A stretch of DNA of 64,000 bases from an uncultured bacterium. Lineage in GTDB: Bacteria > Patescibacteriota > Minisyncoccia > Phycocordibacterales > UBA9973. This document shows, piece by piece, positions 22,688 to 61,500 of this stretch; position 1 is the stretch's first letter, and each line of letters starts with the position of its first letter. Below the pieces are notes generated by a model that had not been told where the DNA came from, ran no database searches, and saw only the letters and a list, made by a program, of their open reading frames with translations. Location of the stretch: the NCBI GenBank assembly GCA_937903035.1, contig CALCZP010000004.1, forward strand, positions 181,506-245,505. Direction: 5' to 3'. Position numbers and translations under genes: made by a program.

Positions 22688-23221
22688 ATGACAATTGAAA
22701 AACCTCCGACAAGACTTGAACTTATGACAGCAGCAGCACATTTAGATTATATGGGATTTCCTGCTCGGTATATCCGATATGTGGAACCCTACGAATCAGT
22801 CGATGAGAAGCTCCAAGATGCACTCGTTGCTCATGGAGTAGTTATGGAATATGCAACAATGATCACTCGGATTATTGAATCATATCTTTCAAGAAGTTTC
22901 TTTATACCTCCCTTCTTTGAATTAAAAGATGAGAGAAGTGCATTTTATAAGAAACTTCCGGACAATGTGCTTGGTATAATCAACAATTCAAACACAAGAA
23001 AAAGTCAACAAGAACATGTTGTTTCTGCATTAAATTTTCTGCTAGAAAGCACTCCATCATGCCAGCAGCTTGCAAAAGAAATCAAACAAAGCTTTTACGA
23101 TTTTGAATGGGAAAAAGACACTAAAAACGCAAAAGTTTTAATTGCTCATACCGAATCATTTCGGGAGCATCTGTTAAAGCTATGCTTTATGTTTACTACA
23201 CATACTTCATTATTGGAGTAA
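22688..23221 (+). CDS. Hypothetical protein (at the position often held by recX, but no RecX repeats recognised)
   Basis: 177 aa in an AT-rich coding region. No motif recognised. Confidence 0.4.
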   Translation: MTIEKPPTRLELMTAAAHLDYMGFPARYIRYVEPYESVDEKLQDALVAHGVVMEYATMITRIIESYLSRSFFIPPFFELKDERSAFYKKLPDNVLGIINNSNTRKSQQEHVVSALNFLLESTPSCQQLAKEIKQSFYDFEWEKDTKNAKVLIAHTESFREHLLKLCFMFTTHTSLLE

Positions 23222-26202: not shown

Positions 26203-26763
26203 ATGTCACTTGAAAAGAAATTCGAGAAAAACGGATGGTTCCCTATTCTCAAGAAAATAGATTTTGAAACAAGGGATCGCTTCGAAAAATACATCATCAA
26301 ACAGGAAGATGACTTAAAAATATTCTTCAATACAAGTGGTGGCGATGTAAACGTTGCATTGTCTATTGTTGATCTTATGAATTTATGGAAAAAAGTAGAA
26401 GGGAAAAAAGTCAAATCCTTTTGCTTGGGAGAGTGCAGCTCGGCAGGCCTTACCATCCTATCGTCATGTGATAATGAATTTAGAGAATGTGCACCAAACA
26501 CTCGTTTTTTATTTCATAGCCATTTTTATCGAGTAAACCTTCGACACAACTTAGGTCTTGAGGCAAACCAACAAGCACTCCTAAAACAATGGCAATGGTT
26601 TGAAAAAGCCATTAAACAAGAATCTGACGGCTTTAAACTTTCAGATGAAAAAATTATGGAATTAAGACAATTTGGAGAAAATCATTCTTATTCTCTCAAT
26701 CCAAATGAAGCAAAGGAGTTGGGTATCATTGCAAAGATAACGGATATGCCAAGCATTCTGTAA
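26203..26763 (+). CDS. Divergent ClpP-family (S14) serine peptidase-like protein, orphan with no clpX nearby
   Basis: 186 aa. IFFNTSGGDVNVALSIVDLMNLWKK...GECSSAGLTILSSCD...RFLFHSHFY aligns to ClpP YINSPGG...GQAASMG...RVMIHQP. The catalytic Ser and His positions are retained. The coding region is AT-rich. Confidence 0.55.
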   Translation: MSLEKKFEKNGWFPILKKIDFETRDRFEKYIIKQEDDLKIFFNTSGGDVNVALSIVDLMNLWKKVEGKKVKSFCLGECSSAGLTILSSCDNEFRECAPNTRFLFHSHFYRVNLRHNLGLEANQQALLKQWQWFEKAIKQESDGFKLSDEKIMELRQFGENHSYSLNPNEAKELGIIAKITDMPSIL

Positions 26764-34543: not shown

Positions 34544-34855
34544 ATGAGCAAGGTAAAGTTAAAAATCTTTTATGATGAACGTAATCACTACTCAACACTT
34601 ACACTCTCTAGTGAACAAGGTGCATTTTTGAAACAAGTGAAAAGTATCCTCAACAAACACTTTGGTAAAACTACCTGTGACACATTCTTTATTGGATGTA
34701 GACCCAAAAAAGCAAACAATGTCTTGATTGAAATATCAGTACAGAAACAAGTTGGGATGATCCACATGGAAGCCGCAACCAAAGAACTTCATGCATTGAG
34801 TACTAAAACACAACTGATTGGAGTAGAGATGAGACCAATAGATATCATCATCTAA
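34544..34855 (+). CDS. Small hypothetical protein
   Basis: 103 aa ORF, AT-rich, with a strong terminator immediately downstream. Confidence 0.35.
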   Translation: MSKVKLKIFYDERNHYSTLTLSSEQGAFLKQVKSILNKHFGKTTCDTFFIGCRPKKANNVLIEISVQKQVGMIHMEAATKELHALSTKTQLIGVEMRPIDIII

Positions 34856-35448: not shown

Positions 35449-38400
35449 TTAGCTGAGTGTAATAGCTTCTCCACCAATCGCAACACTAGTGGCACCCACG
35501 GTCTTTTTCAGTTCCTCACCAAAACTATCAACGACTGATTGATACTGAAATGGAAGTGTAAGAGTGATGATATCAGATGGTGCAAGACCTTTGTCTTTGC
35601 GCATGTCTTGGACCGTACGTACAAGCTCACGGTACTCACCTTCGAGTTTAAGTTGAAGTGTGATCGTTGTATCAAGCTTTGTTTCTTCACCTGCGATCAC
35701 TGACTTCACATTGAGTTCCTGCATCACAATCGCTGCGTATTGGTCGCTGAGATTCCAGTTTTTGACATACAGTGCCTGGAGTGGCTGACGGACTGCGATA
35801 CCCTCTTTTTTACGAAGTGCATTTCCTTGTGTACAAACCTCGCGCACGGTAGCCATATCTTTCAATAGCTCATCACTCACTGGCATTACTGCTGGCCAAG
35901 TACTCAAGTGCACACTCTCCTCGTTTGATAAGGACTTCAATTTCTGCCAGATATCTTCTGCTGCAAATGGTGCAAATGGTGCCATGAGCTGTGCGACTGT
36001 TTTGAGTACGCGGTAGAGTGTCGCTTTTGCGGCAACATCACCATCCTTGATGCGATCGCGACTCCGACGCACATACCAGGTCGAAAGGTCATCAATAAAG
36101 TCACGAAGTGCTCGTACCGGCTCAAGTAGCTTGTAGGTATCGAGACTTTCAGTCATCAGACTCGTGAGTTGATCGAGCCGAGTTGTAATCCATGCGTCGA
36201 GCACATTATCACCACTTGGATCTACCTCTTCTACGTTTGGATCTCGATAGAGGTCGTAGAATGAGAGCACATTGTAGAGCAATCCGAATACCTGACGTTG
36301 AAGCTCGACGACTGTTTTCTCATCATAGTTCTTGCTATCACCTGGCTGGTTGACTGAGTACATCCAGAGACGGAGTGTATCGACACCGTACTTCTCCATT
36401 TGCTCCCATGGGTTCACGATGTTGCCAATAGACTTACTCATTTTCTTACCTTGTGCATCAAGAAGATGTCCAAGACAAATGACGTTTTTGTATGCCTTGC
36501 CACGCCCAGTGAGCAAGCCAATCGCATGGAGTGTGTAGAACCATCCACGAGTCTGATCGATAGCTTCGGAGATAAAGTCAGCTGGATATGCAATCTCTCC
36601 ATCAAACGGATAATGATCCTGTGCAAACGGCATCGCTCCTGAGTCAAACCACACATCCATCACCTCTTTGGTGCGGCGATATTCCTTGCCATCTTTGACA
36701 AGCACTACATCATCGATGAACGGACGGTGGAGATCAAGCTCAAACTGCGCATTATGTGGAAGTGGTACAAAGTGAAGCGGACGGACTTCGGCATTACTGA
36801 AGTTCACATAGTCGCGCGTTTCTTCAAAGAGACGATCAAAGCTAATCCCTCGCGCTACAAGCTCAAGTGCGCGCGTTGATGCACCATGGGCAACGATCAA
36901 AATATTCTTGCCCTGGTAGCGAGATTCAATATCGTAGAGCGCCTCACCTGCACGCTTGATCACATCGGCATATGATTCACCATCAACAGTCTTGAACCCA
37001 TAGCGATCAGCTGCCTTGTTGCGCATTTCAAAGTATGACTCGATCGGCTTTCCTTCAAATGCACTACCCACATTCCACTCCCCGAGACGAGCATCGGTCA
37101 CGATAGCTTCGGCAGCTAATCCAAGCTTCTCAGCGACAATACGCGCTGTCTCTTGGGTACGAGCAAATGGTGACGCGATGATGAGATCGATCTGTTTGTC
37201 AGCGAGCGCAGTCGCACTTTGAATTGCCTGCTCTTTGCCACGAGTGGTGAGTGGATTTGTGGTTGCAGTATTCACATTCCAGTTCCCTGCAACGTTAAAC
37301 TCTGTCTCGCCATGCCGCATGACAAAGTACTTGTTGTTATTATGCTTGGCATATTTCTTGAGCATATCGATCGAGTCGACAACCATGCGGTCAGTATCTT
37401 CTGAAATCCAAATCGGAAGCGGTGTGCCCCAGTAGCGCTCGCGTGAGATCGCCCAGTCCTTGATACCGTCGAGCCATTCGCCAAAGCGCCCTTCTTTGAT
37501 ATGTGACGGCTCCCAGTTGATGCTTTCATTCTCAGCAACAAGTGTGTCACGAAGTTTCGACATAGCGATATACCATGAGTCACGCGCGTAGTAGATGAGC
37601 GCAGTTTTACAGCGCCAGCAGTGCGGGTATGAGTGTTCGTACTTTTCTTTCTTGAAGAGGAGTCCGCGATGTGCGAGGTCTTTGATGATGTCGACTGCGA
37701 CTTCTTCGTCTTTGACAAATCTTCCTTCAAGAAAATCAGTGCCTGCAATAAACTTTCCTTCGACATTCACCGTGTGGAATTTCGGAAGACCAACCTTGGT
37801 ACCAAGCTCAAAGTCCTCTGCACCATACATTGGTGCAATATGGACGATACCACTACCATCAGTCGTTGTGACAAAGTCAGCAGTATAGACCTTATACGCA
37901 TTGGTAAGTTTTTCTTTTTCTGTACCAGTGATCTGTGCGGCAAGGTATGGATAGAGTGGCTCATACTGCATATCCGCCAAATCTTCTCCAAAATCTCTTC
38001 GCACTTCTTCATAACCATCACCAACCAAATCTTTTTTATCTTCAGCAACAATTAAAATTTCATTCTCTTTTTTGAGCCAAAGATATGTAATATTAGCACC
38101 TACCGCCAGTGCAACATTCCCTGGCAATGTCCATGGTGTTGTTGTCCAAGCAACAATATAAACATTCTCAAAATCCTTAACTTTTGCCTTAAACTTTGCG
38201 TATACTGTCAGATCTTTATCATCCTGATATCCTTGCGCAAGCTCATGGGTCGCAAGTGTTGTTCCGCATCGCGCACACCATGGTGAGACTCGATAGTCCT
38301 TGTAGAGGAGACCCTGATCGTTGACCTTACCGACAATATTCCAGAGACTCTCCATATAGCGAGGATTGAACGTGTAGTACGCCTTGTCCTTGTCGACCCA

Positions 38401-38823
38401 GTAGCCAATACGATCGGTGAAATCTTCCCAGTCTTTAATATAGGTAAAGACGCTGTCCTTACATTCTTTGTTAAATTTTTCGATACCGTAGGCTTCGATG
38501 TCTTTTTTTGAAGCAAGTTCCAATTTCTTTTCGATCTGAAGCTCGACCGGAAGTCCGTGAGTATCCCATCCGGCACGGCGCGGTACATGGAAGCCCTGCA
38601 TGGTCTTGTAGCGAGGGATCACGTCCTTGAATGCACGTGCGAGCAAGTGATGAAGCGCTGGCTTTGCATTTGCTGTTGGCGGTCCTTCAAAAAAGACAAA
38701 CTCACCCTTGGTCGCAGGCTTCTCAAGTGTTTTTTTGAATATGTCATTATCGCGCCAAAAATCGAGCATTCGCTCTTCACGAAGTGCCGACTCGCTTTTC
38801 TGTTGGTTTGTTGATTCATTCAT
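35449..38823 (-). CDS. ileS: Isoleucyl-tRNA synthetase carrying an in-frame histidine-phosphatase (PGAM-like) domain insertion
   Basis: 1124 aa. IleS catalytic core, CP1 editing domain (AWTTTPWTLPGN), KMSKS (KMSKSIGN) and anticodon-binding region are all present. Between ISRERYWGTPLP and DVWFDSG there is an extra ~200 aa with RHGETEFN...LIVAHGASTRAL, the two catalytic-His motifs of the histidine phosphatase superfamily. The HIGH-position reads ALHH. Confidence 0.85.
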   Translation of the reverse strand: MNESTNQQKSESALREERMLDFWRDNDIFKKTLEKPATKGEFVFFEGPPTANAKPALHHLLARAFKDVIPRYKTMQGFHVPRRAGWDTHGLPVELQIEKKLELASKKDIEAYGIEKFNKECKDSVFTYIKDWEDFTDRIGYWVDKDKAYYTFNPRYMESLWNIVGKVNDQGLLYKDYRVSPWCARCGTTLATHELAQGYQDDKDLTVYAKFKAKVKDFENVYIVAWTTTPWTLPGNVALAVGANITYLWLKKENEILIVAEDKKDLVGDGYEEVRRDFGEDLADMQYEPLYPYLAAQITGTEKEKLTNAYKVYTADFVTTTDGSGIVHIAPMYGAEDFELGTKVGLPKFHTVNVEGKFIAGTDFLEGRFVKDEEVAVDIIKDLAHRGLLFKKEKYEHSYPHCWRCKTALIYYARDSWYIAMSKLRDTLVAENESINWEPSHIKEGRFGEWLDGIKDWAISRERYWGTPLPIWISEDTDRMVVDSIDMLKKYAKHNNNKYFVMRHGETEFNVAGNWNVNTATTNPLTTRGKEQAIQSATALADKQIDLIIASPFARTQETARIVAEKLGLAAEAIVTDARLGEWNVGSAFEGKPIESYFEMRNKAADRYGFKTVDGESYADVIKRAGEALYDIESRYQGKNILIVAHGASTRALELVARGISFDRLFEETRDYVNFSNAEVRPLHFVPLPHNAQFELDLHRPFIDDVVLVKDGKEYRRTKEVMDVWFDSGAMPFAQDHYPFDGEIAYPADFISEAIDQTRGWFYTLHAIGLLTGRGKAYKNVICLGHLLDAQGKKMSKSIGNIVNPWEQMEKYGVDTLRLWMYSVNQPGDSKNYDEKTVVELQRQVFGLLYNVLSFYDLYRDPNVEEVDPSGDNVLDAWITTRLDQLTSLMTESLDTYKLLEPVRALRDFIDDLSTWYVRRSRDRIKDGDVAAKATLYRVLKTVAQLMAPFAPFAAEDIWQKLKSLSNEESVHLSTWPAVMPVSDELLKDMATVREVCTQGNALRKKEGIAVRQPLQALYVKNWNLSDQYAAIVMQELNVKSVIAGEETKLDTTITLQLKLEGEYRELVRTVQDMRKDKGLAPSDIITLTLPFQYQSVVDSFGEELKKTVGATSVAIGGEAITLS

Positions 38824-44759: not shown

Positions 44760-46430
44760 TTACATCTTTTCAGGTACTGTACTACCAAGCAGTGCGAGAC
44801 CTTTTGTCATCGTCCTATAAAGTGCATGCGTAATACCAAGTCGATACGCAGATGCTTCAGTATTGTCATCAATAATCTTCTGCTGCCCATAGTAGCTATT
44901 GAATGCCTGTGCGAGCTCCATAAGATAGGTCACCAGGTAATGCGGTGTCCATTCAGTCTGACAGCGAATCACGATATCCGGGAAACGTGCAATCATACGC
45001 TCAAGGATTTCAGTACCCACGATCGGTTTTTGCATACTTGGAGCAATACCTGCTTCTTCACCTTTCTTCACAAGCGACATCGCGCGCACTGCGGTGTATT
45101 GGAGATAGGGACCACTATCCCCTTCAAATGACAATGATGTTTCAGGATCAAAGTTGATATCCTTGCCTGGCATTGCGCGCAAGATTACCAGCCTGATCGC
45201 AGCAATACCAATCATCTCTGCTGACTCCGGAGTGATATCAGCATTCTTTTCTTTTACTTCCTCAACAACGGTTGCAAGCACATCCTCTGCAAGCGGTACC
45301 CCACCAAGTCGTGATGACATTTTTTGACCCTTGAAGCTCATGCGACCGTGATACCGATGGAGACTATGTTGCTTCCAGAGAGGATTGATATGCATCGCTG
45401 CATCCAGAACGACGTTGAAGTGCGACACCTGTTGCGCATCGGTAATAAAAATAGAGAGATCAGGATTGTGTTTTGCAAATTTGAGTTCAAGTAGTCCGAG
45501 GTCTTTTGCTTCATACGTCGGATTGCCTTTGCTGTTGATAAAGACTGCAGTATGAAGCTTTTGGGACTCGTCCGGTGTGTACACAATCGCCCCTTCACTC
45601 TCGGTAAAGACTTTTGGTGTATGTGCAAGCACGAGCTTCTTGCCATCAACTCCTGCTTCACTTTCATAGATATAAGAGTCAAAGTGTGAGCCGAGTCGTG
45701 CGACGATTGTTTCAAAGTACGCGATATTGAATTCTTTGCAGCGCTCATAGAGTGACCATTCTGGTGATGATGTTTGTGCATAGAGGTTGTCAGCAATTTC
45801 CTTTACTCGCGTCTGCACTGATTCATCATCCTCGTATCGCTTTGTCCCCTCAACATATGCATCACCGAGTATTGAAACCTGCTCTGGTGCAAAGTCTGCA
45901 CCGTATTTCTCAAGGAGTATAAACACCGCCTTTGCCACACCAAGTGACACATCAGATGGAAATGACATCGTAGACACATCAGCGCCAGAAGCTTTGGCAA
46001 GACGAGTGATCGACTCCCCTACAGTGTTGTTCATGAGGTGTCCAATATGAAATGGCTTAAAAAGATTTGGAGATGAATGCTCCACGAGAATTTTCTTGCC
46101 TTCATACACGGTTGTCTGCCCCCATGAGTCTTTATTCACATCCGCAAGAATATCGAGGATCACCGAGCGATCAAGTTCAAAGTTGATGAAGCCGGGCGCC
46201 GCAACACTCACTGATGCGATGCGACTATCTGCGGACTGGAGTACCTGCATGAGCTCAGTCGCGATCTCGGTCGGATTTTTGCCGAGCTGCTTTGAGGCGA
46301 TCAGCGCAACATTAGTCGCATAGTCACCATGCGAGAGATCCTTGGGACGCTCGAGACTAAACGCCACATCAGCTATGCCAAACTTCGCCTGAAGCACGTC
46401 TGCAATGAGTGTTCGGATGGTGGATTCCAT
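44760..46430 (-). CDS. argS: Arginyl-tRNA synthetase
   Basis: 556 aa with an N-terminal Arg add-on domain, HIGH (PFHIGHLMNNTVG) and a C-terminal DALR anticodon-binding region. Confidence 0.9.
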   Translation of the reverse strand: MESTIRTLIADVLQAKFGIADVAFSLERPKDLSHGDYATNVALIASKQLGKNPTEIATELMQVLQSADSRIASVSVAAPGFINFELDRSVILDILADVNKDSWGQTTVYEGKKILVEHSSPNLFKPFHIGHLMNNTVGESITRLAKASGADVSTMSFPSDVSLGVAKAVFILLEKYGADFAPEQVSILGDAYVEGTKRYEDDESVQTRVKEIADNLYAQTSSPEWSLYERCKEFNIAYFETIVARLGSHFDSYIYESEAGVDGKKLVLAHTPKVFTESEGAIVYTPDESQKLHTAVFINSKGNPTYEAKDLGLLELKFAKHNPDLSIFITDAQQVSHFNVVLDAAMHINPLWKQHSLHRYHGRMSFKGQKMSSRLGGVPLAEDVLATVVEEVKEKNADITPESAEMIGIAAIRLVILRAMPGKDINFDPETSLSFEGDSGPYLQYTAVRAMSLVKKGEEAGIAPSMQKPIVGTEILERMIARFPDIVIRCQTEWTPHYLVTYLMELAQAFNSYYGQQKIIDDNTEASAYRLGITHALYRTMTKGLALLGSTVPEKM

Positions 46431-46512: not shown

Positions 46513-47094
46513 ATGAACCAAGAAAAATCAAATAAGCAGTACGATACAATCATCGCTGACTGCAAAAAAGAATTCATTAAAAAAAACAAAAAATACGGAA
46601 ACAGTCTCGATAGCTATGACGCAATGGGTGTCCTTTCAAAAGTTTTTATCAAGCTGTATCGCATTGCCTCAATCCAGGAAGCTGGAGAATATAAAGTTGA
46701 AGGCGAACCTATTGAGAAAGAACTTCCCGGCATTATCAACTATTGTTTGTTTGGCATCACTGTCGCAAACCAAATAGCAAGCGGAATAAGAGTATGTTAT
46801 AGCAGCGATGCACTCTTTCAAGAGTATGACCAAGCAGCAGCATCTACGAGAAATTTATTTCAAAAGAAAAATCATGATTATGGTGAAGCATGGCGACAGC
46901 TCTCAATAAGCTATATGACACAGGAATGCCTGGTAAAGTATAATCGCATGCTTACGATGTACGCCGGATTAAAATTCAAGCCTGAGAATCGACAAGAACT
47001 TCAAAAAGAATTCATCGAAGTGTTCTCTGACATTTGCAACTACTGTATTTTTTGTTGTATTCGTATTTCAGAAGGCGCAAACGCTATGGTGTAG
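46513..47094 (+). CDS. DUF1599-like protein with two tandem repeats, each carrying a K-x-x-(D/K)YG..W motif
   Basis: 193 aa. KQYDTIIADCKKEFIKKNKKYGNSLDSYDAMG...IINY and again NLFQKKNHDYGEAWRQLSISYMT. This resembles the DUF1599 family, which is often found next to thymidylate synthase and folA genes. The region is AT-rich. Confidence 0.5.
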   Translation: MNQEKSNKQYDTIIADCKKEFIKKNKKYGNSLDSYDAMGVLSKVFIKLYRIASIQEAGEYKVEGEPIEKELPGIINYCLFGITVANQIASGIRVCYSSDALFQEYDQAAASTRNLFQKKNHDYGEAWRQLSISYMTQECLVKYNRMLTMYAGLKFKPENRQELQKEFIEVFSDICNYCIFCCIRISEGANAMV

Positions 47095-47097
47095 CAC

Positions 47098-47131
47098 AAA
47101 TTCCCGACCAGAGATTGGTCGGGAATTTTTA
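47098..47131 (+). terminator. Intrinsic terminator (or attenuator) between the DUF1599-like gene and thyX
   Basis: TTCCCGACCAGAGATTGGTCGGGAATTTTT. Confidence 0.6.
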
Positions 47132-47199
47132 TTTGACTTCCTTACTATTTAAGGTAATGTAAGCTCAAACAACATTTCGTCATTTAAAAACAACTCAAT

Positions 47200-48648
47200 A
47201 TGACTCAACAAAACGAAACATCTTCTAATGTCATCATTATCGATGGACTATCACCAGAAGAAGGGGCAATGTCCCAAGCCTTGTACTCCAGACGACCACA
47301 GAGCATTCTCAGCCATTTGGAACAAATATGGAAAAAAGGTGCTCAAGGTTTTATGGAAACATGGTACACAGGGTACGGACATAACAGTATTGGCGATTGT
47401 GGTTCAACAACGCTTTATTTTGAACATGTAAGCATGCTGGCCGCAAAAGCAATCCAAAACAATCCGCTCTACAACGGACAAGAAGCGAGTACTCGTTACT
47501 TGGATTTCGCCGGTAGAATGATGGTTAATCCCCTCGCGGGCTTACCAAATGCAAAGTATTTGTACATACCAAAAGAAAATTTGAATGCTGCATCTCTAAT
47601 TGATGCTCCATCATTTTTTTCAGAAAAGTACAAAAAGTTTGCAAACGAGTCCGCAAGCGAACAAGGAAAAATTATCCAAGAAACATGGATGGCATTTTAC
47701 GAAAAAAGCATGCCGATTGTTAAAAAATATGTTGCCGAACTCAATCCAAAAAGTGATGACCAAACAGATTCTCAGTATGACAAAGCTGTAAATGCCCGTG
47801 CATTTGATATCATGCGAGGATTTATCCCCGCAGGTATGACAACTCTTGTGAGCTGGCATAGCAATATCAGGCAGCTGCGTGATAACCTTGCAATCTTGAA
47901 GTACCACCCAAGTACTGAAGTTGCGCGAATTGCAATGACTGCACTTGCCGGACTCAAAGCAGTCTATCCAGCAAGCTTTGACAAAAAAGTGTATGACAAA
48001 ACTGAAGAGTATTATCAAATGCTTGCAGAAGAGTTTTCTTATACAGAATGGGCCCTTGAACCAGAATATATAAGCAAAGGCTTTGAAATCATCGGTAATT
48101 TTGATACTGAGATAATCAAAAAAGATTTTAGGAAAGTTCTTGAAAACAGACCAGAAAAAACAATCCCACCACATCAACTAGGTAGGGCTGGTGAGATAAA
48201 TGTTTCTTTCATGATTGACTTTGGTTCATTTCGTGATGCCCAACGCCACCGCAAGGGTGTATGCATGATGCCGCTTTTGACAACAAAGTATGGATTCCAT
48301 TCATGGTATCTCGAACGACTGCCACAAGAAGTTCGTATCGAAGCTGAAAAGCTTATCGCTGAAATGGATATACTTATCAATGCTCTTCCCTGCGCAGACG
48401 TTGAACGACAGTACTATATTCCAATGGGATATAAAGTTCCTGCAGATTTTACCTGGTCATTTGATCAATGTATCTATGTTGCAGAACTCCGCAGTGCGAC
48501 AACAGTTCATCCAACATTCCGTATTCACGCTCAAGCTTTGGGTAGATGGATTGAAGAAACAGTTCCTTACGCAAAACTCTATGTTGATTATTCAGAAGAC
48601 ACCTGGAGCTACAAACGAGGCTCACAAGACATCACTGAAAAACAGTAA
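47200..48648 (+). CDS. thyX: Tandem-duplicated FAD-dependent thymidylate synthase ThyX (pseudo-dimer); the first repeat lacks the RHR signature, the second keeps it
   Basis: 482 aa, roughly twice the ThyX length. Both halves contain the ThyX C-terminal block: WHSNIRQLRDNLAILKYHPSTEVARIAM and FTWSFDQCIYVAELRSATTVHPTFRIHAQALGRWI, matching the [24 protein letters not shown] block seen in Thermotoga ThyX. Half 2 has FRDAQRHRKG (RHR). At the equivalent position half 1 has AIQNNPLYNGQEASTRY (RHR replaced by NNP). Confidence 0.7.
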   Translation: MTQQNETSSNVIIIDGLSPEEGAMSQALYSRRPQSILSHLEQIWKKGAQGFMETWYTGYGHNSIGDCGSTTLYFEHVSMLAAKAIQNNPLYNGQEASTRYLDFAGRMMVNPLAGLPNAKYLYIPKENLNAASLIDAPSFFSEKYKKFANESASEQGKIIQETWMAFYEKSMPIVKKYVAELNPKSDDQTDSQYDKAVNARAFDIMRGFIPAGMTTLVSWHSNIRQLRDNLAILKYHPSTEVARIAMTALAGLKAVYPASFDKKVYDKTEEYYQMLAEEFSYTEWALEPEYISKGFEIIGNFDTEIIKKDFRKVLENRPEKTIPPHQLGRAGEINVSFMIDFGSFRDAQRHRKGVCMMPLLTTKYGFHSWYLERLPQEVRIEAEKLIAEMDILINALPCADVERQYYIPMGYKVPADFTWSFDQCIYVAELRSATTVHPTFRIHAQALGRWIEETVPYAKLYVDYSEDTWSYKRGSQDITEKQ

Positions 48649-48649
48649 A

Positions 48650-48677
48650 ACAACCCCGCACTAGTGCGGGGTTTTTA
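48650..48677. terminator. Bidirectional intrinsic terminator between thyX (+) and the NDT-like gene (-)
   Basis: AAAACAACCCCGCACTAGTGCGGGGTTTTT. Confidence 0.65.
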
Positions 48678-49163
48678 TTACTCATGAATGAATTCAGACT
48701 CTTCAATATTTTTCTGAACAATCTTAAGTTCTTCAAGAAAAAACGGGATAAGTTCCTCAATAGATTCTTTGTATCGAATAAAAGAAGTACTTCTTTTATT
48801 TACATCATACAAGGATGCACCTATGGGCAAGTGCGAAACCAGTGCATCCTTGTGGGCACACATCAGCACCCTGATACCATGCTTCTCTATTGACGTAGCA
48901 AGCTCCCACCCTAACCCGGTTGAAGGATACGATAACTCTCCAATCATGGCATGAGCATTACCAACGCATTCATGAATATCTGTGCAATATATTTCGTGCG
49001 AATCAGGCTGCTTTCCGTTTGATGCAGAATTTGCATTCCAAAAATCAAGCACCTCTATCCACTCAATGGAGCGAAGTTTGTTTTTAAATGATGCAATTTG
49101 ATCTTTGTATTCTTGTGGGGCATACGTTAATCCGCAGCCAACATACAGTTTTACAATTGTCAT
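48678..49163 (-). CDS. Nucleoside 2-deoxyribosyltransferase-like protein (NDT/DNPH1 fold)
   Basis: 161 aa. The N-terminus is VKLYVGCGLTY. STGLGWELATS matches the NDT catalytic motif DVGLGMELGYA with its Glu nucleophile. Confidence 0.6.
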   Translation of the reverse strand: MTIVKLYVGCGLTYAPQEYKDQIASFKNKLRSIEWIEVLDFWNANSASNGKQPDSHEIYCTDIHECVGNAHAMIGELSYPSTGLGWELATSIEKHGIRVLMCAHKDALVSHLPIGASLYDVNKRSTSFIRYKESIEELIPFFLEELKIVQKNIEESEFIHE

Positions 49164-49247
49164 AATGTATAGTTTTAGTTTAGAGGCATACTATCCTTAA
49201 TCCAAAAAAAGTCAAAGAAAAACCCCACAATAACGCGGGGTTTTAGT

Positions 49248-49622
49248 TTACTTTTTTTCTTCATACAAAAAGAACTCTTTGTTATGGAAAACCCATACTG
49301 GAATTTGAGTTTTCTGGCTATCATACTTGCTATACCGTGAAAGCTCTGTTCGTACAATGGTTAGGCATTGTTTAATAAAAGGCTCAAGCTCGACACGGAA
49401 CACGTTTTTAGATGAACTGATTTTTATCTCCATAGATAACGTATCAGGATGCGGCATGTCACCTTGTTGAAAAACGAGGTAGATCGGACTTTTGTGTTCA
49501 ACAGCAAAGAGTGCTACCGCCATCTCGAACAACTGTTTTACAAGTGCAGCTCGCAATATCTCACGTGCCTTACTACTCATCAATACAGCGTACTTTCCGT
49601 ACGTAATTGTTATGTAGATCAT
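49248..49622 (-). CDS. Hypothetical protein
   Basis: About 124 aa from the internal ATG (MIYITITYGKYAV...). No family recognised. It is divergent from the DHFR-like gene. Confidence 0.35.
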   Translation of the reverse strand: MIYITITYGKYAVLMSSKAREILRAALVKQLFEMAVALFAVEHKSPIYLVFQQGDMPHPDTLSMEIKISSSKNVFRVELEPFIKQCLTIVRTELSRYSKYDSQKTQIPVWVFHNKEFFLYEEKK

Positions 49623-49724
49623 AGTCCTAGGTTTTGTTTGTCCAGATACTACGCTTTGTGGGGTAAAAGTCAAAGCTCTTTACTTTCCTATAGTTTACTG
49701 TAGTGTACATAAAAACACTTAACT

Positions 49725-50234
49725 ATGATAACAATACATGTTGTTCTTGGGAGAGAAAATCGTATTTATGGACTACCCTGGATTCCAAACCTTGCAGTAT
49801 CAGAAAAGCACTACATACGACAAACAAAAGGCAATGTAGTCATTCTTTCCTACAAAATGTGGGAGTTATTTAGTAAACAAGAAAAAATCTTTAATGAAGC
49901 AAAACCTGTATTTGTCTTTGGTAAAGGCAAAGTTCCTCTACCAGAACTTCCTAAAGATGCTTCGCATTTTGAAAACATTATCCATGCTATATCTCCCTAC
50001 TACGGACTCAAAAATACAGAAATTTTTGTTCTTGGTGGAACTGAATTTTTTGAATCATTGATCCGTGATAGTGCAGTAAAGCGAATCTTCATAACTCGAA
50101 TAGATGAAGATCTTGAATCTCCTATGACGTTTGATAAGGGTCTCCTTTCAAGCTTTAGGCAGTATTATGAAGATACATGGCGTGAAAGAACTAATGAAGT
50201 ATCTGCCGTAGAATTTCAGGTCTGGGCAAAGTAA
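49725..50234 (+). CDS. Dihydrofolate reductase-family protein (divergent)
   Basis: 169 aa aligning to DHFR blocks: RIYGLPW (IGxxNxxPW), VVILSYKMWELF (VIMGRKTWES), FVLGGTEFFESLI (VIGGGxxYExxL) and IFITRIDED (LYLTHID.E). The usual catalytic Asp position seems to be Asn, but the alignment is uncertain. Confidence 0.5.
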   Translation: MITIHVVLGRENRIYGLPWIPNLAVSEKHYIRQTKGNVVILSYKMWELFSKQEKIFNEAKPVFVFGKGKVPLPELPKDASHFENIIHAISPYYGLKNTEIFVLGGTEFFESLIRDSAVKRIFITRIDEDLESPMTFDKGLLSSFRQYYEDTWRERTNEVSAVEFQVWAK

Positions 50235-50245
50235 GTACCTCTCCA

Positions 50246-50275
50246 CAAAAAACCGCATCATCATGATGCGGTTTT
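50246..50275. terminator. Bidirectional intrinsic terminator (DHFR-like gene + / rplK -)
   Basis: AAAAAACCGCATCATCATGATGCGGTTTTT. Confidence 0.65.
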
Positions 50276-50286
50276 TCTTTTTGGCA

Positions 50287-50712
50287 TTAGCCGATGATTT
50301 CGATTCCAGCTGAGCGAGCTGAGCCTTCGACGATCTTCATCGCTGCCTCAATATCGTTTGCATTGAGGTCGGGCATCTTGCGCTCTGCAATGGTGCGAAC
50401 CTGATCGCGGGTAAGCTTGCCTACCTTTGAAGTACGAGCTTTACCTGAACCTTTCTCAACACCTGCTGCTTTGAAGATGAGTGAGGTCATCGTTGGTTCG
50501 GTCACCCGAAAGTCGTATGAACGGTCATCGTAGACATCGATCTTGACACCGAGGGTTTCGCCACGCTTGTCAGCAGTCGCTGCGTTGAACTTCTGGACGA
50601 AGTCACTGATGTTTACACCAGCCTGACCGAGTGCGGGACCAAGTGGAGGCGCAGGAGTAGCCATGCCACCCATTGCGCGAAGTTTGATACGTTTGGTAAT
50701 GTTTTTTGCCAT
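50287..50712 (-). CDS. rplK: 50S ribosomal protein L11
   Basis: 141 aa: KLRAMGGMATPAPPLGPALGQAGVNISDFVQKFN... Confidence 0.95.
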   Translation of the reverse strand: MAKNITKRIKLRAMGGMATPAPPLGPALGQAGVNISDFVQKFNAATADKRGETLGVKIDVYDDRSYDFRVTEPTMTSLIFKAAGVEKGSGKARTSKVGKLTRDQVRTIAERKMPDLNANDIEAAMKIVEGSARSAGIEIIG

Positions 50713-56736: not shown

Positions 56737-58518
56737 TTAATTTGCAATGAACCGATACCCTGTACGAGGTGACCATGGAAGAGGTGTCGGTGATTGTATC
56801 CAGACAATACCATCAGTTGATGTCCAAATCTTATTGCCGAATGATCCGACATTTCGACTATCACCCACTACCATGGTTCCCTGTACTACCACCGCGTCCA
56901 TTTCTTGAAAGAGACCAATAGACGACGGGAATGTTGTACTCAGTAATGTCCATGAACTTCCGTTTGTTGAAGTATAAATTGAACGAGAAGATCCTCCTGA
57001 TACACCGCTCCATGCAACACCGCCCATGAAATACATTTTGTTGTTGTAGTTGAGGATTTTTGCATCGCTTGTGGTTCCAAGGATAGATGTGTCCGCAACT
57101 TTTGACCATGATATGCCGTTGATACTTTTCCATATATCTGACTGCGCATAGCTACATGGCAGACCTGATGTCGTACTATACCCCATTGGCACCGTGCACC
57201 CTGAAGGTAATACGCCCTGCACGCCACCAATCACATAGAGCGATCCATTAAATACTCCAAGTGTCGGATTTTCTCGCGCGAAAAACGGGAGTTGCACAGT
57301 CGTCCAATTGATACCATCAGTTGTTGACCATGCCTTTGCATATTCGATACCTCCCATATAATTTGAACGACCTCCAATAACGTAGATTTTGTTATTAAAC
57401 ACGATCGATTTATATCGATAATAATCAGCAAATGGTACTGTTGATGCAACCTGACTCCACGTCGTACCGTTAGATGAGTTCCATATATCAGTAAGACGCG
57501 GCACAAACGGCGTACCACCACCGAATACCCAGTATTTATTATTAAAAGAAAGTGCTTCGAAACTTCGACGGCCCGACCACATTGATGAAGCAGCAGTATT
57601 TGTAGACATTAATGACCACTGCTGAAGATTAGACGAAGAAAAAATGTCATTAAATGATGCATAAGGTGTTACGTCATTCCCACCCCCAAGAAATACTAGT
57701 GTACTAGAAGTAACAGATGGTGGGATAATTGCTGGACCAATAGTAAAGGTATTCCCTACAGGAGCAACACTTCCTATACCAGCCCACGTATACTGACCGG
57801 GAAAATCATAGTAGGTGTCTATTTGTACATTAATTTGAGCACCAACAAATGCAGTAGTTCGTATATCACCGTAGATTGCAAATTTCTTTGTCTCACCTGC
57901 AGTAAACGACAACATGAGTGGGATAAATTTATTTTCAAACGAAGATCCGATGAGTGGATCTACGATCGTTGTTCCGATCTGTACATTATCAGCACGAAGA
58001 AGCAGATTGGTAACCGTTGAAGAAACGACCGGACTTTGCGGTATGGTGATAGATATTCCATAGAGCGTGAGCGGATTATTAGCAGTGAAATCAAATTCCG
58101 CCAATTTCACGTTTGTAGTTCCCGCAGGAACTGTCTGAGCAGGAGGATTATCGATAGAAATAGTGGTTGTCAGGGTCGGAAGCGGATCATCCAAACATTT
58201 TTTGATCTTACTTATCCCCTTTTGTCGACACAATGGTGTTGCAACAATCTCGGGAGCTACTTCAAGTTGTGGCAACACTTGTCGTGGTGGTTTGATACCA
58301 CCTGTTTGAAAGGTAGGAATTTCAACGGTATCAATATCTTTTATATCGCGAGAAGGACGAATAGTCTCCCCTTTCGTAGGTACAACAGTCTCGATTTCAG
58401 CTATTTCTGATAGAGCAGAAAGGCTCTCAAGTGAGCGTCCAAACAGACGACTATTGTCGTTTTGTACTGGTACAAATACTCCAATACAAATCATTACTAC
58501 GGCGATATATCTATTCAT
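56737..58518 (-). CDS. Secreted Kelch-repeat beta-propeller protein
   Basis: 593 aa with a signal/TM N-terminus. The C-terminal half has repeated Kelch-type blades: NNKYWVFGGG, NNKIYVIGG, NGSLYVIGG and NNKMYFMGG. Confidence 0.65.
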   Translation of the reverse strand: MNRYIAVVMICIGVFVPVQNDNSRLFGRSLESLSALSEIAEIETVVPTKGETIRPSRDIKDIDTVEIPTFQTGGIKPPRQVLPQLEVAPEIVATPLCRQKGISKIKKCLDDPLPTLTTTISIDNPPAQTVPAGTTNVKLAEFDFTANNPLTLYGISITIPQSPVVSSTVTNLLLRADNVQIGTTIVDPLIGSSFENKFIPLMLSFTAGETKKFAIYGDIRTTAFVGAQINVQIDTYYDFPGQYTWAGIGSVAPVGNTFTIGPAIIPPSVTSSTLVFLGGGNDVTPYASFNDIFSSSNLQQWSLMSTNTAASSMWSGRRSFEALSFNNKYWVFGGGTPFVPRLTDIWNSSNGTTWSQVASTVPFADYYRYKSIVFNNKIYVIGGRSNYMGGIEYAKAWSTTDGINWTTVQLPFFARENPTLGVFNGSLYVIGGVQGVLPSGCTVPMGYSTTSGLPCSYAQSDIWKSINGISWSKVADTSILGTTSDAKILNYNNKMYFMGGVAWSGVSGGSSRSIYTSTNGSSWTLLSTTFPSSIGLFQEMDAVVVQGTMVVGDSRNVGSFGNKIWTSTDGIVWIQSPTPLPWSPRTGYRFIAN

Positions 58519-58559: not shown

Positions 58560-61500
58560 TTACTCCCCTTCACTTGGTGCAGGAGCAGATGCTTCGCCGC
58601 TTCCTTCATCAGCCGGAGCACTTTCACCACCTTCATCCACAGGAGGTGTTTCTTCACTTGGAGATGTCACCTCACCCCCTCCGTCATCTGCAGGTGGTGG
58701 TGTCTGTTCATCACCTGATCCATCATTACTACTTCCTCCACTTGCTCCCCCTGCATTTGCTGCACCATTTTGAAGGAGCTGCTGGAGCTGATCTTTGCTG
58801 ACACAGACCTGATCTTCATCAGTACCGACACAGAGCTCTTCAGTCGTGACTTTCTTGGTCTTTACACTGTCCACGAGTGCTTCGCCACGCTCTGCAATAC
58901 CCTGGAGGAAGGTCGCGACTTTCTCGGCAAAGGTCTGATCTTCAAATACTGGCAATGCCTGTACCTTTATATCCATCTCTTGAATAGCTTTAATCGTATA
59001 AGGGATAAATCCGCCATAACCAACTGACTTGAATCCAGTAAGTGGATCAGTCTTTACAAGCTCAGGAAAGAGCTGTTCCACTTCCTGTGCAATGAAGCCT
59101 CCATGCGCTGGATCACTATCATCCTCTTTATTCCAGTTGTAGGTTACAGCACGAAGCTGAAGAATACGACCAAGAATACCATCTTCAACGCTTACAATAT
59201 TTTTCTTAAGCCGCTCATCAGAACTACAACTAAGAACTGCATTATCTACATCAATATCACAATGACCGTTTTGGTTTTCAAATCGAGCAACAACACCATC
59301 AGTAAGACTTCCATCACCAACATCCAATGTAAAATTGGCACCCGTATTCATAATACCCAATTTAAAGCCTGACTGATAGTTAGGATCACCGATAAATGAC
59401 GAGTTACCTGCAGGGTTAGAATCGAATCTCATAAACGGATCCCCTCCTGAAGCACCTGCTATATTAAGCTCACTATTCGTTGCATTAATACCATAGGTGA
59501 ACGCATCACTTCCAAGATGGTCATAGAAATAAAATCCGTTATCTGACGTACCACCTCCAATATTAAGGATTCGCTGGTTGGTTGAAGGATTTCTAAAATC
59601 TATCTCTGCGGTTGAAGGGTTTGCCTCTACATAGAAAAATGCAGTGTTGCTTCCTGATTCCTTAAGTCTAAGGAAACTACTTGATGAAGAAGTGTTAGCA
59701 ACAAAGAAGTCAGTATTTATAGGACTTCTTATATTAAATGCAGAACCAGTCGAATACGCCTCCATTAACATCGATTGATATCCTGTTATTGGATTAGTGA
59801 GACTCATTATGGCCTGCCCGGAATCCCCTTCCAGATGGAAGAATTCATTACCAGTTATTTCAGTTGCAGTAATGATAGTATCACTACCAGTTCCATACAT
59901 TTTGAAAAGTTCATTACCCTGTCTTTGGAAAGAAATTGATGCAGTCGTTGAATTTCCATATCCGGTGAAATATGTATCACCATTTTGATCAGACACATTA
60001 AAAGATGATCCTGTTGTTGAGGCAGATATACCAAATGCCTGATTTCCATTCGATGGTTCGGAAATAGTAAATGAACTAAAATTTGTACCACCAACAGCAT
60101 TCAAGAAGTTGTTACCATCACGATTGGAAGCCGAGATATAGTTGGTAGTCGTATTTCCTGATGCACTAAACATGTCATTTCCTTGGTATCCACTAAGACT
60201 CATGCCCCAGTATGTTGAAGCACCATAGAGATTGAACAAACCGTCACCTGTTGCACTATTGGAAACACTTATCCCGCCATTTACAGAAAGTTGGTTACTA
60301 CCATTATTCCAGACAAAGTTTGAACTCGCGCCGAATGCACCAGAGTTGTTGAACTGAATCTGGGTATTTGATCCTGCAGGAGTTCCGCCACCACTGCCAA
60401 TGTTTGTCCATGAGCCAGCACTGTTCTTGTACTGCATGGTGCCACTATTGTCGCGGATACCGTATCCAGATGAACCAAGTGTGCCAGTGAAGTTCAAATA
60501 GCTATTAGAAGGGTTGAGTGCAAGACCATTTCCAGTGAATTGAGCATATTCAGTAGCAGCATCACCAAACGAGACCTTCCCAGCATTTGGATATTGTTTG
60601 ATCCATGAACGAAGCGTTGAAGGTGTGAGGAATGACGCATCAACCGAAACACCACGAACATAACTTGTACTTTGCCAGTCAGTACCAGTGCTTTCGCGAA
60701 CAAGAAAGTCATTGATCATGAAGCTATTGGTCTGACCATTACCAGTAACACGGTTGAGTGTTTTGTAATTTCCAGTAGTTCCTCCTAGGTTGCCATAGAC
60801 AGTATTTTGAACAGTTCCACTCACATATACTGGCTCATTTACGTTCAAGCCAGCACCGTTGCTTGTAAACTGACCTCCGGCAAACACATACTGTCCATCA
60901 CCATAATCATACGATGCGATAGAAGTACCATTATAGTCTTCATACAGACCAGTCTCATCACAGGTACCAACGCATCCATTACCGATAAATGCACGACCAC
61001 TACCACCACTACCCATGATAATACTGTCTGAGTAAATGGCCGAACTTGCATGAACGTTTCCATTCACATCAAGGTTATAGCCAGGCGCTGGTGTGCCAAT
61101 ACCAACCCTTCCATTAGTATCAATTCCCATTCGAAAAGTATTACCGGTACCAAACTGAAGACCTTTACTTCCAGTTGTAGTAATATATGCAGTTTCCCCA
61201 TTCATACCTCCTGAAATAAGTGCAGATGCGTATGCGGAACCACCGTATCCAATTTCCAAAGCACGACTCGAACTATTTTGATCATTATAGATCCGGAGGC
61301 TTCCATAACTTGATGATGTAGGAGCTCGCAAAATAATACTATTAGCATCACCAACAATTTCAAGTTTTGCACCTGGTGCTTTTGTACCAATACCGATACT
61401 ACCTGAACTTATGGTTGTTCCCGTACCGTCAAGACCCGTACCATAAATCAAGTTTCCAATACTAAGCTGATTTGATCCCGTTGCTGAAGCAACATATGCA

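Follow-up and report, generated by a model that had tools for sequence, protein, structure and literature searches.

A probable resident thymidylate-synthesis module with an aberrant DHFR-fold protein in the rplK-argS slot of a Patescibacterium

The question raised by this locus is whether an AT-rich group of nucleotide-metabolism genes between argS and rplK was acquired from elsewhere or belongs to its host, and what its members, among them a DHFR-like protein accompanying a ThyX, would do there. Our view of the genome, for thymidylate synthase and folate genes as for all others, is the 64 kb stretch of DNA that was analysed (the window). The first-pass annotation had given the coordinates of the block (46513-50234) and its gene set correctly, and its identities for the four recognisable genes were upheld by Pfam and profile searches. 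In our best reading, the host is a Paceibacteria/Nomurabacteria-like Patescibacterium, a very small bacterium of the candidate phyla radiation, and the block is a resident thymidylate module in the rplK-argS slot. We estimate a probability of roughly 0.68 that the block is a native dTMP module and that its DHFR gave up the canonical function after ThyX had become established. The features of the region are as follows.

44760..46430, minus strand: argS, left anchor of the slot (Pfam families of the identical gene in L007)
46513..47094, plus strand: DUF1599 (NMAD1) protein, 193 aa, two repeats, the first degenerate (Pfam PF07659, PHROG 1485)
47098..47128, plus strand: terminator-like hairpin, 14-bp stem and T run, immediately 3' of the DUF1599 gene
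47200..48648, plus strand: tandem ThyX, 482 aa (Pfam Thy1, PF02511)
48652..48673, both strands: bidirectional terminator-like hairpin between the convergent ThyX and DNPH1-like genes
48678..49163, minus strand: DNPH1-like (NDT-superfamily) predicted nucleoside 5'-monophosphate N-glycosidase, 161 aa (profile against PDB)
49215-49188, minus strand: promoter-like site upstream of the DNPH1-like gene, past the 49219..49244 hairpin
49219..49244, minus strand: terminator-like hairpin 3' of the orphan ORF
49248..49622, minus strand: orphan ORF, 124 aa from ATG (141 aa from TTG at 49673; codon score)
49673-49646, minus strand: promoter-like site at the orphan ORF
49725..50234, plus strand: DHFR-fold protein, 169 aa (Pfam DHFR_1, PHROG 316, AF2 model)
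50248..50276, terminator-like call on the plus strand: perfect palindrome I12, 14-bp arms, between the convergent DHFR-like and rplK genes
50287..50712, minus strand: rplK, right anchor of the slot, followed by nusG and secE

The 3.7 kb of the block are the most AT-rich in the window: their GC content is 0.3885, the mean across all 3722-bp windows being 0.4435 (sd 0.021), and only 0.07% of these have a GC as low. The GC of all five block genes lies 0.8-1.9 sd under the per-gene mean and their codon-usage scores are 0.02-0.20 per codon against 0.32 ± 0.10; the compositional shift claimed earlier is thus confirmed by quantitative scans of both GC and codon usage across the window. The GC dip (-0.055 or more) exceeds that in relatives (-0.003 to -0.049; positive in two), and 7 of 9 relatives likewise show a slot with more AT than its flanks, irrespective of its content. 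The AT-richness and weak codon adaptation would reflect fast-evolving, often exchanged slot genes amid conserved, GC-richer housekeeping genes, and composition would not mark a recent foreign insertion. Terminator-like sites in the region number 8, compared with 4.1 ± 2.1 in shuffles.

Genes for dTMP synthesis fill the rplK-argS slot across Patescibacteria (for example in L001, L012-L014 and L104-L106), and argS borders it in these loci, in L017, in L019 and in others. The gene order of the window recurs in L017 (Wolfebacteria), which reads rplK, DHFR(-), DNPH1-like(+), ThyX(-), DUF1599(-), argS, and DUF1599 and ThyX stand at the equivalent place in L001, L105 and L106. Among close relatives the slot holds ThyA, short ThyX or tandem ThyX, with DHFR, dCTP deaminase, dUTPase and Tmk variably present. 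The type of thymidylate synthase differs even where ArgS is 59-66% and rplK 84-87% identical to the window's (the rplK range of L001 and L012-L016), and tandem-ThyX identity (64% to L001, 38% to L014) is discordant with the housekeeping genes; there is turnover inside the slot. DNPH1-like identity follows ArgS, rplK and NusG, at 56-61% in close relatives and 32-45% in distant ones, and this protein would be a vertically inherited member of the core module.

The fused tandem architecture previously proposed for the ThyX holds, as the N and C halves each align to a short ThyX profile (hhalign 96.6% and 94.3%), and the whole protein matches Thy1 with an E value of 6.3e-11 (42.8 bits against a cut-off of 24.8). 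Its motif is split between the domains: the N domain (about aa 1-285) keeps S-x-R-Y, as S-T-R-Y, and the 'NIR' arginine, with NNP in place of RHR; RHR and the 'ELR' arginine are found in the C domain (about aa 286-482), from which SxRY is absent. Homologues number at least 2749, Patescibacterial in every named case, and the family is labelled FAD-dependent thymidylate synthase wherever sources name it; the window's subclade carries an additional insertion of about 39 aa. The protein falls short of the NCBIfam thyX equivalog model (13.9 versus 87.9 bits), no PDB relative was detectable by sequence, and no paper on the tandem form was found in the literature searched. As a member of this family, it would convert dUMP to dTMP using methylene-tetrahydrofolate and reduced FAD, and we infer that a dimer of the fusions would stand in for the usual tetramer, with half its number of complete active sites. 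The DUF1599 protein matches PF07659 in two stretches (E 7.6e-24) and PHROG 1485 (E 9.6e-15); a profile search of PDB gave no relative. Of the two K..YG..W repeats previously described, the second has the motif, but in the first the Trp is replaced by Leu (KKYGNSL). The suggested link between DUF1599 and thymidylate synthase is upheld, the two being adjacent in 6 of 11 tandem-ThyX loci, in 3 of 56 viral loci and in Asgard wyrdviruses, and DUF1599 would be a co-inherited accessory of ThyX.

The family profile of the DNPH1-like protein finds DNPH1/Rcl structures in PDB at E values of 1.8e-7 to 2.4e-6 and true NDTs at 0.009-1.7, which sharpens the original NDT/DNPH1-like identity to DNPH1-like; the Pfam Nuc_deoxyrib_tr match (E 0.044) is below the cut-off. 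By alignment, a DNPH1-like triad of Tyr7, Asp62 and Glu87 and the phosphate-binding serines Ser81 and Ser110 are predicted, residues whose roles in DNPH1 have been described (PMC3834327, PMC10603095). Tyr, Asp and Glu are kept in 26 of 26 members, Ser98 in 24 of 26 and Ser128 as Ser or Thr in 25 of 25 (DNPH1 numbering), and His56 is replaced by Phe in all 26. The enzyme would split the N-glycosidic bond of a (deoxy)nucleoside 5'-monophosphate via a covalent Glu87 intermediate. In the base pocket, Tyr, His or Asn stands for Arg30 and there is no conservation of Asp73, so that a specificity for hmdUMP is not to be presumed; because the pocket is unlike that of the human enzyme, the sequence suggests a probable task in editing or recycling the dNMP pool around dUMP and dTMP. 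A thymidylate synthase (ThyA or ThyX) lies within 8 kb in 24 of the 32 genome loci that the DNPH1-like protein retrieved, mostly directly after rplK. The deoxynucleoside salvage first suggested for the block is upheld in part: the predicted substrates of the DNPH1-like enzyme are 5'-monophosphates, not nucleosides. The 124-aa protein listed as unknown is indeed present and has no match in Pfam, NCBIfam, PHROGs or PDB; scans of 106 loci, of viruses and of metagenomes yielded no relative either. Among the six frames, its own has the highest codon score (0.07 versus -0.31 or lower), and it is probably coding; of the 7 SNPs in a 99.4%-identical variant, 5 lie inside it and change four codons non-synonymously.

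The DHFR-like gene, whose GC3 (0.253) is the minimum for the window, encodes a protein that scores 27.6 bits against DHFR_1 (cut-off 25) and matches PHROG 316 (E 1.1e-8). Its AF2 model (pLDDT 78, pTM 0.75) retrieves DHFRs from PDB with Foldseek (E about 1e-11, TM 0.63-0.75), a match that is partly circular, the model having been built on a 9-sequence alignment that includes canonical DHFRs. The catalytic acid is absent, as had been suspected, E. coli Asp27 being aligned to Ser26. Gly43-Arg44 (Ser42-Tyr43), Thr46 (Met45), Arg57 (Ala59) and Ser63 (Phe65) are also missing and Phe109 stands for Tyr100; LPW and the Gly-Gly motif are retained. Of the ligand-contacting positions, the protein matches E. 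coli at 1 of 16 for folate and at 4 of 24 for NADPH, and it would no longer have the canonical acid or the contacts to the folate tail and the 2'-phosphate. Its sole relative among 1.8 billion representatives, P0136, has the same residue losses. DHFR occurs at 16 of 19 ThyA loci versus 1 of 9 ThyX loci (Fisher p = 4e-4), and slot DHFRs keep Asp27, Gly43, Arg57 and Thr113 in all 16 examined (15 beside ThyA, and that of L017 beside ThyX). The most likely ancestor of the gene is the DHFR found with ThyA in the slot of most relatives, a descent that rests on position and orientation, the sequence being too diverged for phylogeny (BLASTP against the DHFR of L012 was not significant); it may alternatively be a fresh acquisition of an already aberrant DHFR. 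With ThyX present, thymidylate synthesis would no longer yield dihydrofolate. L017 retains a canonical DHFR beside its tandem ThyX, and therefore ThyX does not force DHFR decay; in the ThyX-linked L105, the same position is taken by a DHFR-like gene of 218 aa that has degenerated independently.

It is unlikely that the DHFR-like gene, perhaps together with the orphan ORF, is a relic without function, in decay since ThyX replaced ThyA. Nearly all conserved polar active-site residues are gone, GC3 is at its minimum in a near-orphan gene, DHFR is missing from most ThyX loci with the L105 copy differently degenerate, and non-synonymous SNPs accumulate in the orphan ORF, all of which would fit decay. 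Against this, the window gene and P0136 each retain an intact frame although they diverge by 57% at the amino-acid level, pN (0.35) lies well under a saturated pS (0.76), substitutions in the former active site are common to the pair (Ala59, Met45, Phe/Tyr65, Lys44), the motifs LPW, KHY, KMWE, AKPVFV and TEIFVLGG are conserved between them, and the 510 bp of the gene are unchanged in the 99.4%-identical population variant. Because the gene is kept under purifying selection, we consider its product a non-canonical DHFR-fold protein, not a classical DHFR, with dinucleotide binding probably retained. The E. coli mutants D27S and D27N of Howell et al. (1986) reportedly retain some DHFR activity, and by analogy the window protein may therefore have some residual activity of this kind.

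Acquisition of the island as one unit from an AT-richer donor, a form of the horizontal acquisition suggested in the first-pass annotation, appears distinctly improbable. The low GC, the atypical codon usage, the variable slot content with its discordant ThyX, and the near absence of relatives of the DHFR-like gene and the orphan ORF speak for it; yet like genes occupy a like slot phylum-wide, in identical order in L017 and with DUF1599 and ThyX at the equivalent place in three further loci, DNPH1-like identity follows the housekeeping genes, the top matches of ThyX, DNPH1-like and DUF1599 are Patescibacterial, and no direct repeats, tRNA genes, integrase or transposase were found flanking the block. 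The AT shift, too, recurs in most relatives whatever the slot holds. Hardly probable at all is a base-modification or nucleoside-antibiotic-type pathway like MilA/MilB, in which the synthase-like enzyme would make a 5-substituted pyrimidine nucleotide, the NDT-family hydrolase would free the base, and DUF1599 ('nucleotide modification associated domain 1') would be a modification factor. The Pfam name of DUF1599, the pairing of a thymidylate-synthase homologue with a DNPH1/MilB-type N-glycosidase and the low NCBIfam thyX score are in its favour. However, the neighbours in relatives are those of the ordinary dTTP pathway (ThyA with DHFR or short canonical ThyX, Tmk, dUTPase, dCMP/dCTP deaminases), the large tandem family bears the thymidylate synthase name, the substrate-binding arginines are preserved between its two halves, and no glycosyltransferase, kinase or DNA-modifying gene adjoins the block in the window; the nucleotide or DNA modification module once suggested is thus not borne out.

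Within the native dTMP module that we favour, the unusual parts are the DHFR look-alike without the standard catalytic residues and the DNPH1 relative that travels with thymidylate synthase genes phylum-wide. Compared with canonical ThyX, both halves are homologous to the short enzyme, and the protein taken whole has RHR, S-x-R-Y and both downstream arginines, but two domains lie in one chain and divide the motif. Asgard wyrdviruses carry DUF1599 beside ThyX in a dUTPase-ThyX-DUF1599 block, read as belonging to dTMP synthesis (bioRxiv 10.1101/2021.07.29.453957), and dUTPase is likewise in the block of L017, L105 and L106; the window differs in its cellular, chromosomal setting, its two-repeat DUF1599 with a degenerate first repeat and its tandem ThyX. 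DNPH1/Rcl (2'-deoxynucleoside 5'-phosphate N-hydrolase; 5-hydroxymethyl-dUMP N-hydrolase) is the best structural-database relative of the N-glycosidase (E 2e-7), with the Tyr/Asp/Glu triad and both phosphate-binding serines conserved in the window family, whereas the window protein is bacterial, tied to thymidylate synthase genes and different in its base-recognition residues. The phage protein DmtZ, a dAMP-specific DNPH1-like N-glycosidase of Z-genome phages (PMC12884076), is also a microbial DNPH1-like dNMP-pool editor with its gene beside dUTPase-type genes, a likeness drawn by description; its context is 2-aminoadenine DNA synthesis, not thymidylate synthesis. Finally, the DHFR-like protein shares with FolA (PF00186, type I DHFR) the fold, LPW, Gly-Gly and the hydrophobic core, and its gene has the rplK-adjacent position of the canonical DHFR of L017; unlike FolA, it is without Asp27, Gly43-Arg44, Thr46, Arg57 and Ser63, has Phe for Tyr100, and is paired with ThyX, not ThyA.

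The block at 46513-50234 is neither a foreign island nor a new kind of system: it is a dTMP module resident at this site, of a type already known. Its five ORFs lie between argS and rplK, as follows.

Genes of the block and its flanks (scores against the Pfam cut-off)
44760-46430, minus strand: argS, flank of the block
plus strand: DUF1599 protein, 193 aa; E 7.6e-24, 84.3 bits against 25, in two stretches
plus strand: ThyX homologue, 482 aa; Thy1, E 6.3e-11, 42.8 bits against 24.8
minus strand: NDT-superfamily protein, 161 aa; Nuc_deoxyrib_tr (PF05014), E 0.044, 14.4 bits against 28.8
minus strand: orphan ORF, 124 aa from ATG or 141 aa from TTG; no match
plus strand: DHFR-family protein, 169 aa; DHFR_1, 27.6 bits, barely over 25
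50287-50712, minus strand: rplK, opposite flank of the block

Pfam and profile searches agree with the gene identifications of the first-pass annotation, and GC and codon-usage scans of the window bear out quantitatively its remark that the block is AT-rich. The GC content of the block is 0.3885, against a mean of 0.4435 (sd 0.021) over all 3722-bp windows, of which 0.07% are as low. GC is 0.8-1.9 sd under the gene mean in all five genes, no gene of the window has a lower GC3 than the DHFR-like one (0.253), and codon-usage log-odds per codon are 0.02-0.20 in the block genes as against 0.32 +/- 0.10 in the training genes. In every block gene, the orphan ORF included, the annotated frame is the best of six by codon score. 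The block is unchanged in several other assemblies, and the window lies within a 405-kb ENA metagenome contig (ERZ650244 NODE_1). Isolated genes of similarly low GC (0.35-0.36) occur elsewhere in the window, at 2688-3305, 22688-23221, 26203-26763 and 34544-34855; Pfam searches of the first three gave no match for two and a divergent ClpP-like assignment for one. It seems a general feature of this genome that low GC accompanies orphan or fast-evolving genes.

The rplK-argS interval carries thymidylate genes throughout the lineage, as seen in the neighbourhoods of ThyX and NDT-like homologues.

Gene order in the same slot of relatives' genome loci (double slashes mark the slot ends; tandem ThyX is a fused two-domain ThyX)
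L001: argS // DUF1599, tandem ThyX, long dCTP deaminase // rplK
L014: rplK // dUTPase, NDT-like, tandem ThyX, DUF1599 // argS
L013: rplK // NDT-like, short ThyX, Tmk // argS
L012: rplK // NDT-like, DHFR, CTP-transferase-like, dCMP deaminase, ThyA, HIT-like // argS
L104: argS // Tmk, tandem ThyX, NDT-like, DCD // rplK
L105: argS // dUTPase, DUF1599, tandem ThyX, DHFR-like // rplK
L106: argS // DUF1599, dUTPase, 91-aa ORF, tandem ThyX, then contig end
L017 (Wolfebacteria): rplK, DHFR (minus), NDT-like (plus), DCD-like (minus), tandem ThyX (minus), DUF1599 (minus), dUTPase, argS

Order and orientation in L017 are those of the window. A scan of the NDT-like family at one genome per species gave 32 loci from Nomurabacteria, Wolfebacteria, Pacebacteria, Gracilibacteria, Saccharibacteria and a few others; in 24 of them ThyA or ThyX is encoded within 8 kb, usually directly downstream of nusG-rplK and often together with DHFR, dCMP deaminase, dUTPase or Tmk. 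This distribution bears on the proposal, made from the sequence alone, that the compositional shift marks a horizontally acquired island. Among the marks of a genomic island, the shifted composition alone was found; presence/absence polymorphism, foreign affinity and mobility signatures were not. The slot is AT-richer than its flanks in seven of nine relatives regardless of what it contains, the named relatives of ThyX and of the DNPH1-like (NDT-like) protein are Patescibacterial, and no insertion repeats, tRNA genes, mobility genes or integrase were found at the block borders. A module of the same function occupies the slot across the phylum, and the island proposal is not supported. Nor is the other suggestion, a modification module.

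Within the slot there has nevertheless been turnover. L014, L013 and L012 are 84-87% identical to the window in rplK and 87-90% in NusG, with ArgS at 66%, 64% and 42% respectively, and despite this housekeeping similarity they have three different types of thymidylate synthase. The window tandem ThyX shares 64% identity with the L001 protein and only 38% with the L014 protein, unlike the NDT-like protein, whose identity tracks the housekeeping genes. Horizontal acquisition is therefore a correct description only in the sense of cassette exchange inside a resident module. No gene remnants turned up in 48600-50300 when tblastn was run with ThyA, dCMP deaminase, Tmk, dUTPase, DCD and HIT proteins as queries. 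The picture of thymidylate metabolism is unchanged by this locus, whose value is as a small-scale natural experiment in non-orthologous gene displacement: one conserved chromosomal slot houses ThyA plus DHFR, a short ThyX or a tandem ThyX in ultra-small bacteria that are close relatives.

Further genes were observed in and around these loci. In L027, L028 and L044 (at about 8400-9500) a 210-aa ORF, distantly dUTPase/DCD-like (E about 1e-5), directly adjoins ThyA at the place taken by DHFR in most other loci, and there is no DHFR within the L027 and L028 loci. Directly 3' of ThyA in L012 (9621-10073, minus strand) and L032 (11145-11597, minus strand) is a HIT-like protein, about 150 aa long and with an HFHAQLI motif identified by eye; DUF1599 has the corresponding place next to tandem ThyX. 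Elsewhere in the window, three further genes were noted.

35449-38823, minus strand: 1124-aa class I aminoacyl-tRNA synthetase, IleRS-like (tRNA-synt_1, Anticodon_1, DUF5915), with a His_Phos_1 histidine-phosphatase domain (E 5.6e-34) inserted within the synthetase body at residues 500-674
56737-58518, minus strand: 593-aa Kelch-motif protein, adjoining the next
58560-63911, minus strand: 1783-aa protein whose C-terminal domain is Peptidase_S74 (endosialidase chaperone); comparable giant S74 proteins are encoded close to the slot in L012 and L013

The less ordinary components of the module are the split-motif tandem ThyX with its DUF1599 neighbour, a phylum-wide DNPH1-like enzyme and a constrained DHFR-fold protein. 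The tandem ThyX belongs to a family of at least 2749 proteins, those with a named source being Patescibacterial and several being annotated as FAD-dependent thymidylate synthase. When the protein is split at residue 285, both halves match the same template core of a short-ThyX profile in hhalign (probability 96.6%, E 6e-10 for the N half; 94.3%, E 1e-7 for the C half). The motif RHR(x)7-8S(x)RY is whole in neither domain and is complete only over both. In the N domain NNP replaces RHR while S-T-R-Y (STRY) and the SWH..R arginine are kept; in the C domain RHR and the ELR arginine remain, and S-x-R-Y has been lost (TTKY). These split-motif residues are invariant in a 16-sequence alignment. We infer that the protein would act as a dimer of fusions, in which complete active sites would be half as many as usual, and by Thy1 homology it is a putative FAD- and methylene-THF-dependent enzyme converting dUMP to dTMP. 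It misses the NCBIfam thyX equivalog cut-off (13.9 bits against 87.9), that model having been built on single-domain ThyX. Sequence search of the PDB found no relative, and a literature search found nothing useful on tandem ThyX or on ThyX in Patescibacteria. The family also contains larger fusions, such as a 777-aa ORF in a Saccharibacteria locus (L033, 6413-8746) and a 625-aa protein (P0086) joining dCMP deaminase domains to tandem ThyX.

Repeat 2 of the DUF1599 protein has the full DUF1599/NMAD1 (PF07659) signature, K..DYG..WR / D..IK..R / DI.NY. Repeat 1 keeps only part of it, the signature Trp and Asp being gone in both the window and L001; both repeats are still recognisable. The gene adjoins tandem ThyX in 6 of 11 loci (the window, L001, L014, L017, L105 and L106) and is absent beside it in L003, L005, L019, L033 and L104, while short ThyX, detected with a small reference set, is next door in 3 of 56 viral DUF1599 loci. 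The association is thus real and not obligatory. A dUTPase-ThyX-DUF1599 block is also known from Asgard wyrdviruses (bioRxiv 10.1101/2021.07.29.453957). A DUF1599 profile search of the PDB gave no match; a weak single-sequence match to a dimeric phage dUTPase (E 0.46) is not evidence and was set aside. A terminator-like hairpin lies 3' of the gene. Two further such hairpins, at 48649-48675 and 49218-49244, flank the DNPH1-like gene and are 81% identical to each other (core AACCCCGC...GCGGGGTT). The search for riboswitches or leader RNAs returned only sub-threshold leader-peptide matches, positioned on the terminator hairpins.

The assignment of the 161-aa protein as a nucleoside 2-deoxyribosyltransferase (PF05014) is not supported, its score of 14.4 bits being under the Pfam gathering score of 28.8. 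A 13-member family profile searched against the PDB matched DNPH1/Rcl structures at E 1.8e-7 to 2.4e-6 and genuine nucleoside deoxyribosyltransferase structures only at E 0.009-1.7. The catalytic triad Tyr7, Asp62 and Glu87 (human Tyr24, Asp80 and Glu104) is invariant in all 26 Patescibacterial members. The residues with which human DNPH1 reads the base of hmdUMP are not kept: His56 is replaced by an invariant Phe, Arg30 by Tyr, His or Asn, and Asp73 is variable, in an alignment that is tentative because it uses what we take to be the human N-terminal sequence. The serines that bind the 5'-phosphate in human DNPH1 (PMC3834327, PMC10603095) are largely retained, Ser81 (human Ser98) in 24 of 26 members and Ser110 (human Ser128') as Ser or Thr in 25 of 25. 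From the retained triad and phosphate serines without the base readers, we predict that the protein is a nucleoside 5'-monophosphate N-glycosidase whose base specificity is its own. Phage DmtZ provides a precedent for DNPH1-like pool editing (PMC12884076). The consistent association with thymidylate synthase genes suggests that the role of the protein lies on the dUMP/dTMP side of the pool. We found no published description of this Patescibacterial family. As a companion of thymidylate synthase genes across Patescibacteria it is a testable enzyme family, with a bearing on how dNMP pools are balanced or cleaned in organisms that lack de novo nucleotide synthesis. L017 has a second, degenerate DNPH1-like paralogue between rplK and DHFR (6879-7331, plus strand; hhalign 86%, E 5e-6), whose catalytic Glu is replaced by Val (GWVVET versus GWELAT).

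The orphan ORF has its own promoter-like site and its own terminator-like hairpin. No relatives were found in Pfam, NCBIfam, PHROGs, the PDB, all fetched loci or the viral and metagenome scans, and hhalign comparisons with the DNPH1-like family and the L017 paralogue were negative. In one diverged population variant, five of the seven SNPs fall inside this ORF and change four codons non-synonymously. It is probably a real, fast-evolving, lineage-specific gene.

The DHFR-like protein has almost no relatives in sequence. A word-index search of 5.8 billion clusters returned the query itself only, and no relatives were found in JGI metagenome contigs or viral contigs. An exhaustive search of 1.84 billion representatives gave eight weak DHFR matches (E no better than 4e-6) and one true relative, P0136, 43% identical and carried on a 657-bp contig without context. 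A single-sequence AlphaFold model was unusable (pLDDT 38.6) and was replaced by one built from a 9-sequence alignment (pLDDT 78, pTM 0.75), with which the top Foldseek matches were all DHFR (E about 1e-11, TM 0.63-0.75), a match with some circularity, DHFRs being among the aligned sequences. Replacements were read from an alignment to E. coli DHFR and Patescibacterial DHFRs, using what we take to be the E. coli contact residues.

Replacements in the DHFR-like protein (E. coli; window; P0136)
Asp27 (human Glu30; catalytic carboxylate); Ser26; Thr
Gly43-Arg44 (NADPH phosphates); Ser42-Tyr43; Cys-His
Thr46 (NADPH phosphates); Met45; Met
Arg57 (folate glutamate carboxylate); Ala59; Ala
Ser63 (NADPH phosphates); Phe65; Tyr
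Tyr100; Phe; Phe

The suspicion that the catalytic acid had been substituted was correct, Ser26 standing at the Asp27 position. LPW and Gly-Gly are kept. For Arg57, model strand 60-65 supports Ala59 and one alternative alignment differs. Each of the 16 further Patescibacterial slot DHFRs examined keeps Asp27, Gly43, Arg57 and Thr113. For the window gene compared with P0136, pS is 0.76 (saturated) and pN 0.35; the two proteins have derived residues in common, and in a 99.4%-identical variant the DHFR-like gene is unchanged. The low pN, the shared derived residues and the unchanged variant argue that the gene is not simply decaying.

ThyX yields tetrahydrofolate, so that the thymidylate cycle no longer needs DHFR. 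In agreement with this, DHFR is present in 16 of 19 ThyA loci as against one of nine ThyX loci (Fisher p = 4e-4). Beside tandem ThyX, a canonical DHFR persists in L017, and DHFR has been lost in L001 and L104. L105, a close relative, encodes a differently degenerate, 218-aa DHFR-like protein at the position of the window gene (6557-7213, plus strand); it is without LPW, has Ala at the Asp27 position, lacks Thr113 and carries a large insertion, and keeps Gly-Arg, Arg57, Gly-Gly and Tyr100. What became of DHFR after the switch of synthase is directly visible at these loci: it was kept, lost, or remodelled, the last in two distinct fashions. On the simplest reading, DHFR in this ThyX-bearing lineage would have been freed from its canonical role and diverged differently by genome; in the window lineage it may have come to rest in a state both conserved and non-canonical. 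Only position and orientation point to descent in place of the DHFR-like gene, the sequences having diverged too far to bear on the question.

More tentatively, and with a chance that we put at roughly one in five, the DHFR-fold near-orphan and P0136 would be a neofunctionalised reductase or ligand binder and not a relic. They and the DNPH1-like N-glycosidase found across the phylum would then belong to a Patescibacterial branch, so far undescribed, of deoxynucleotide-pool editing attached to thymidylate synthesis. One possibility is that such editing removes aberrant or surplus dNMP imported by scavenging cells. If the proposal is true, this branch would be a bacterial counterpart of pool sanitising by human DNPH1, with a different base specificity.
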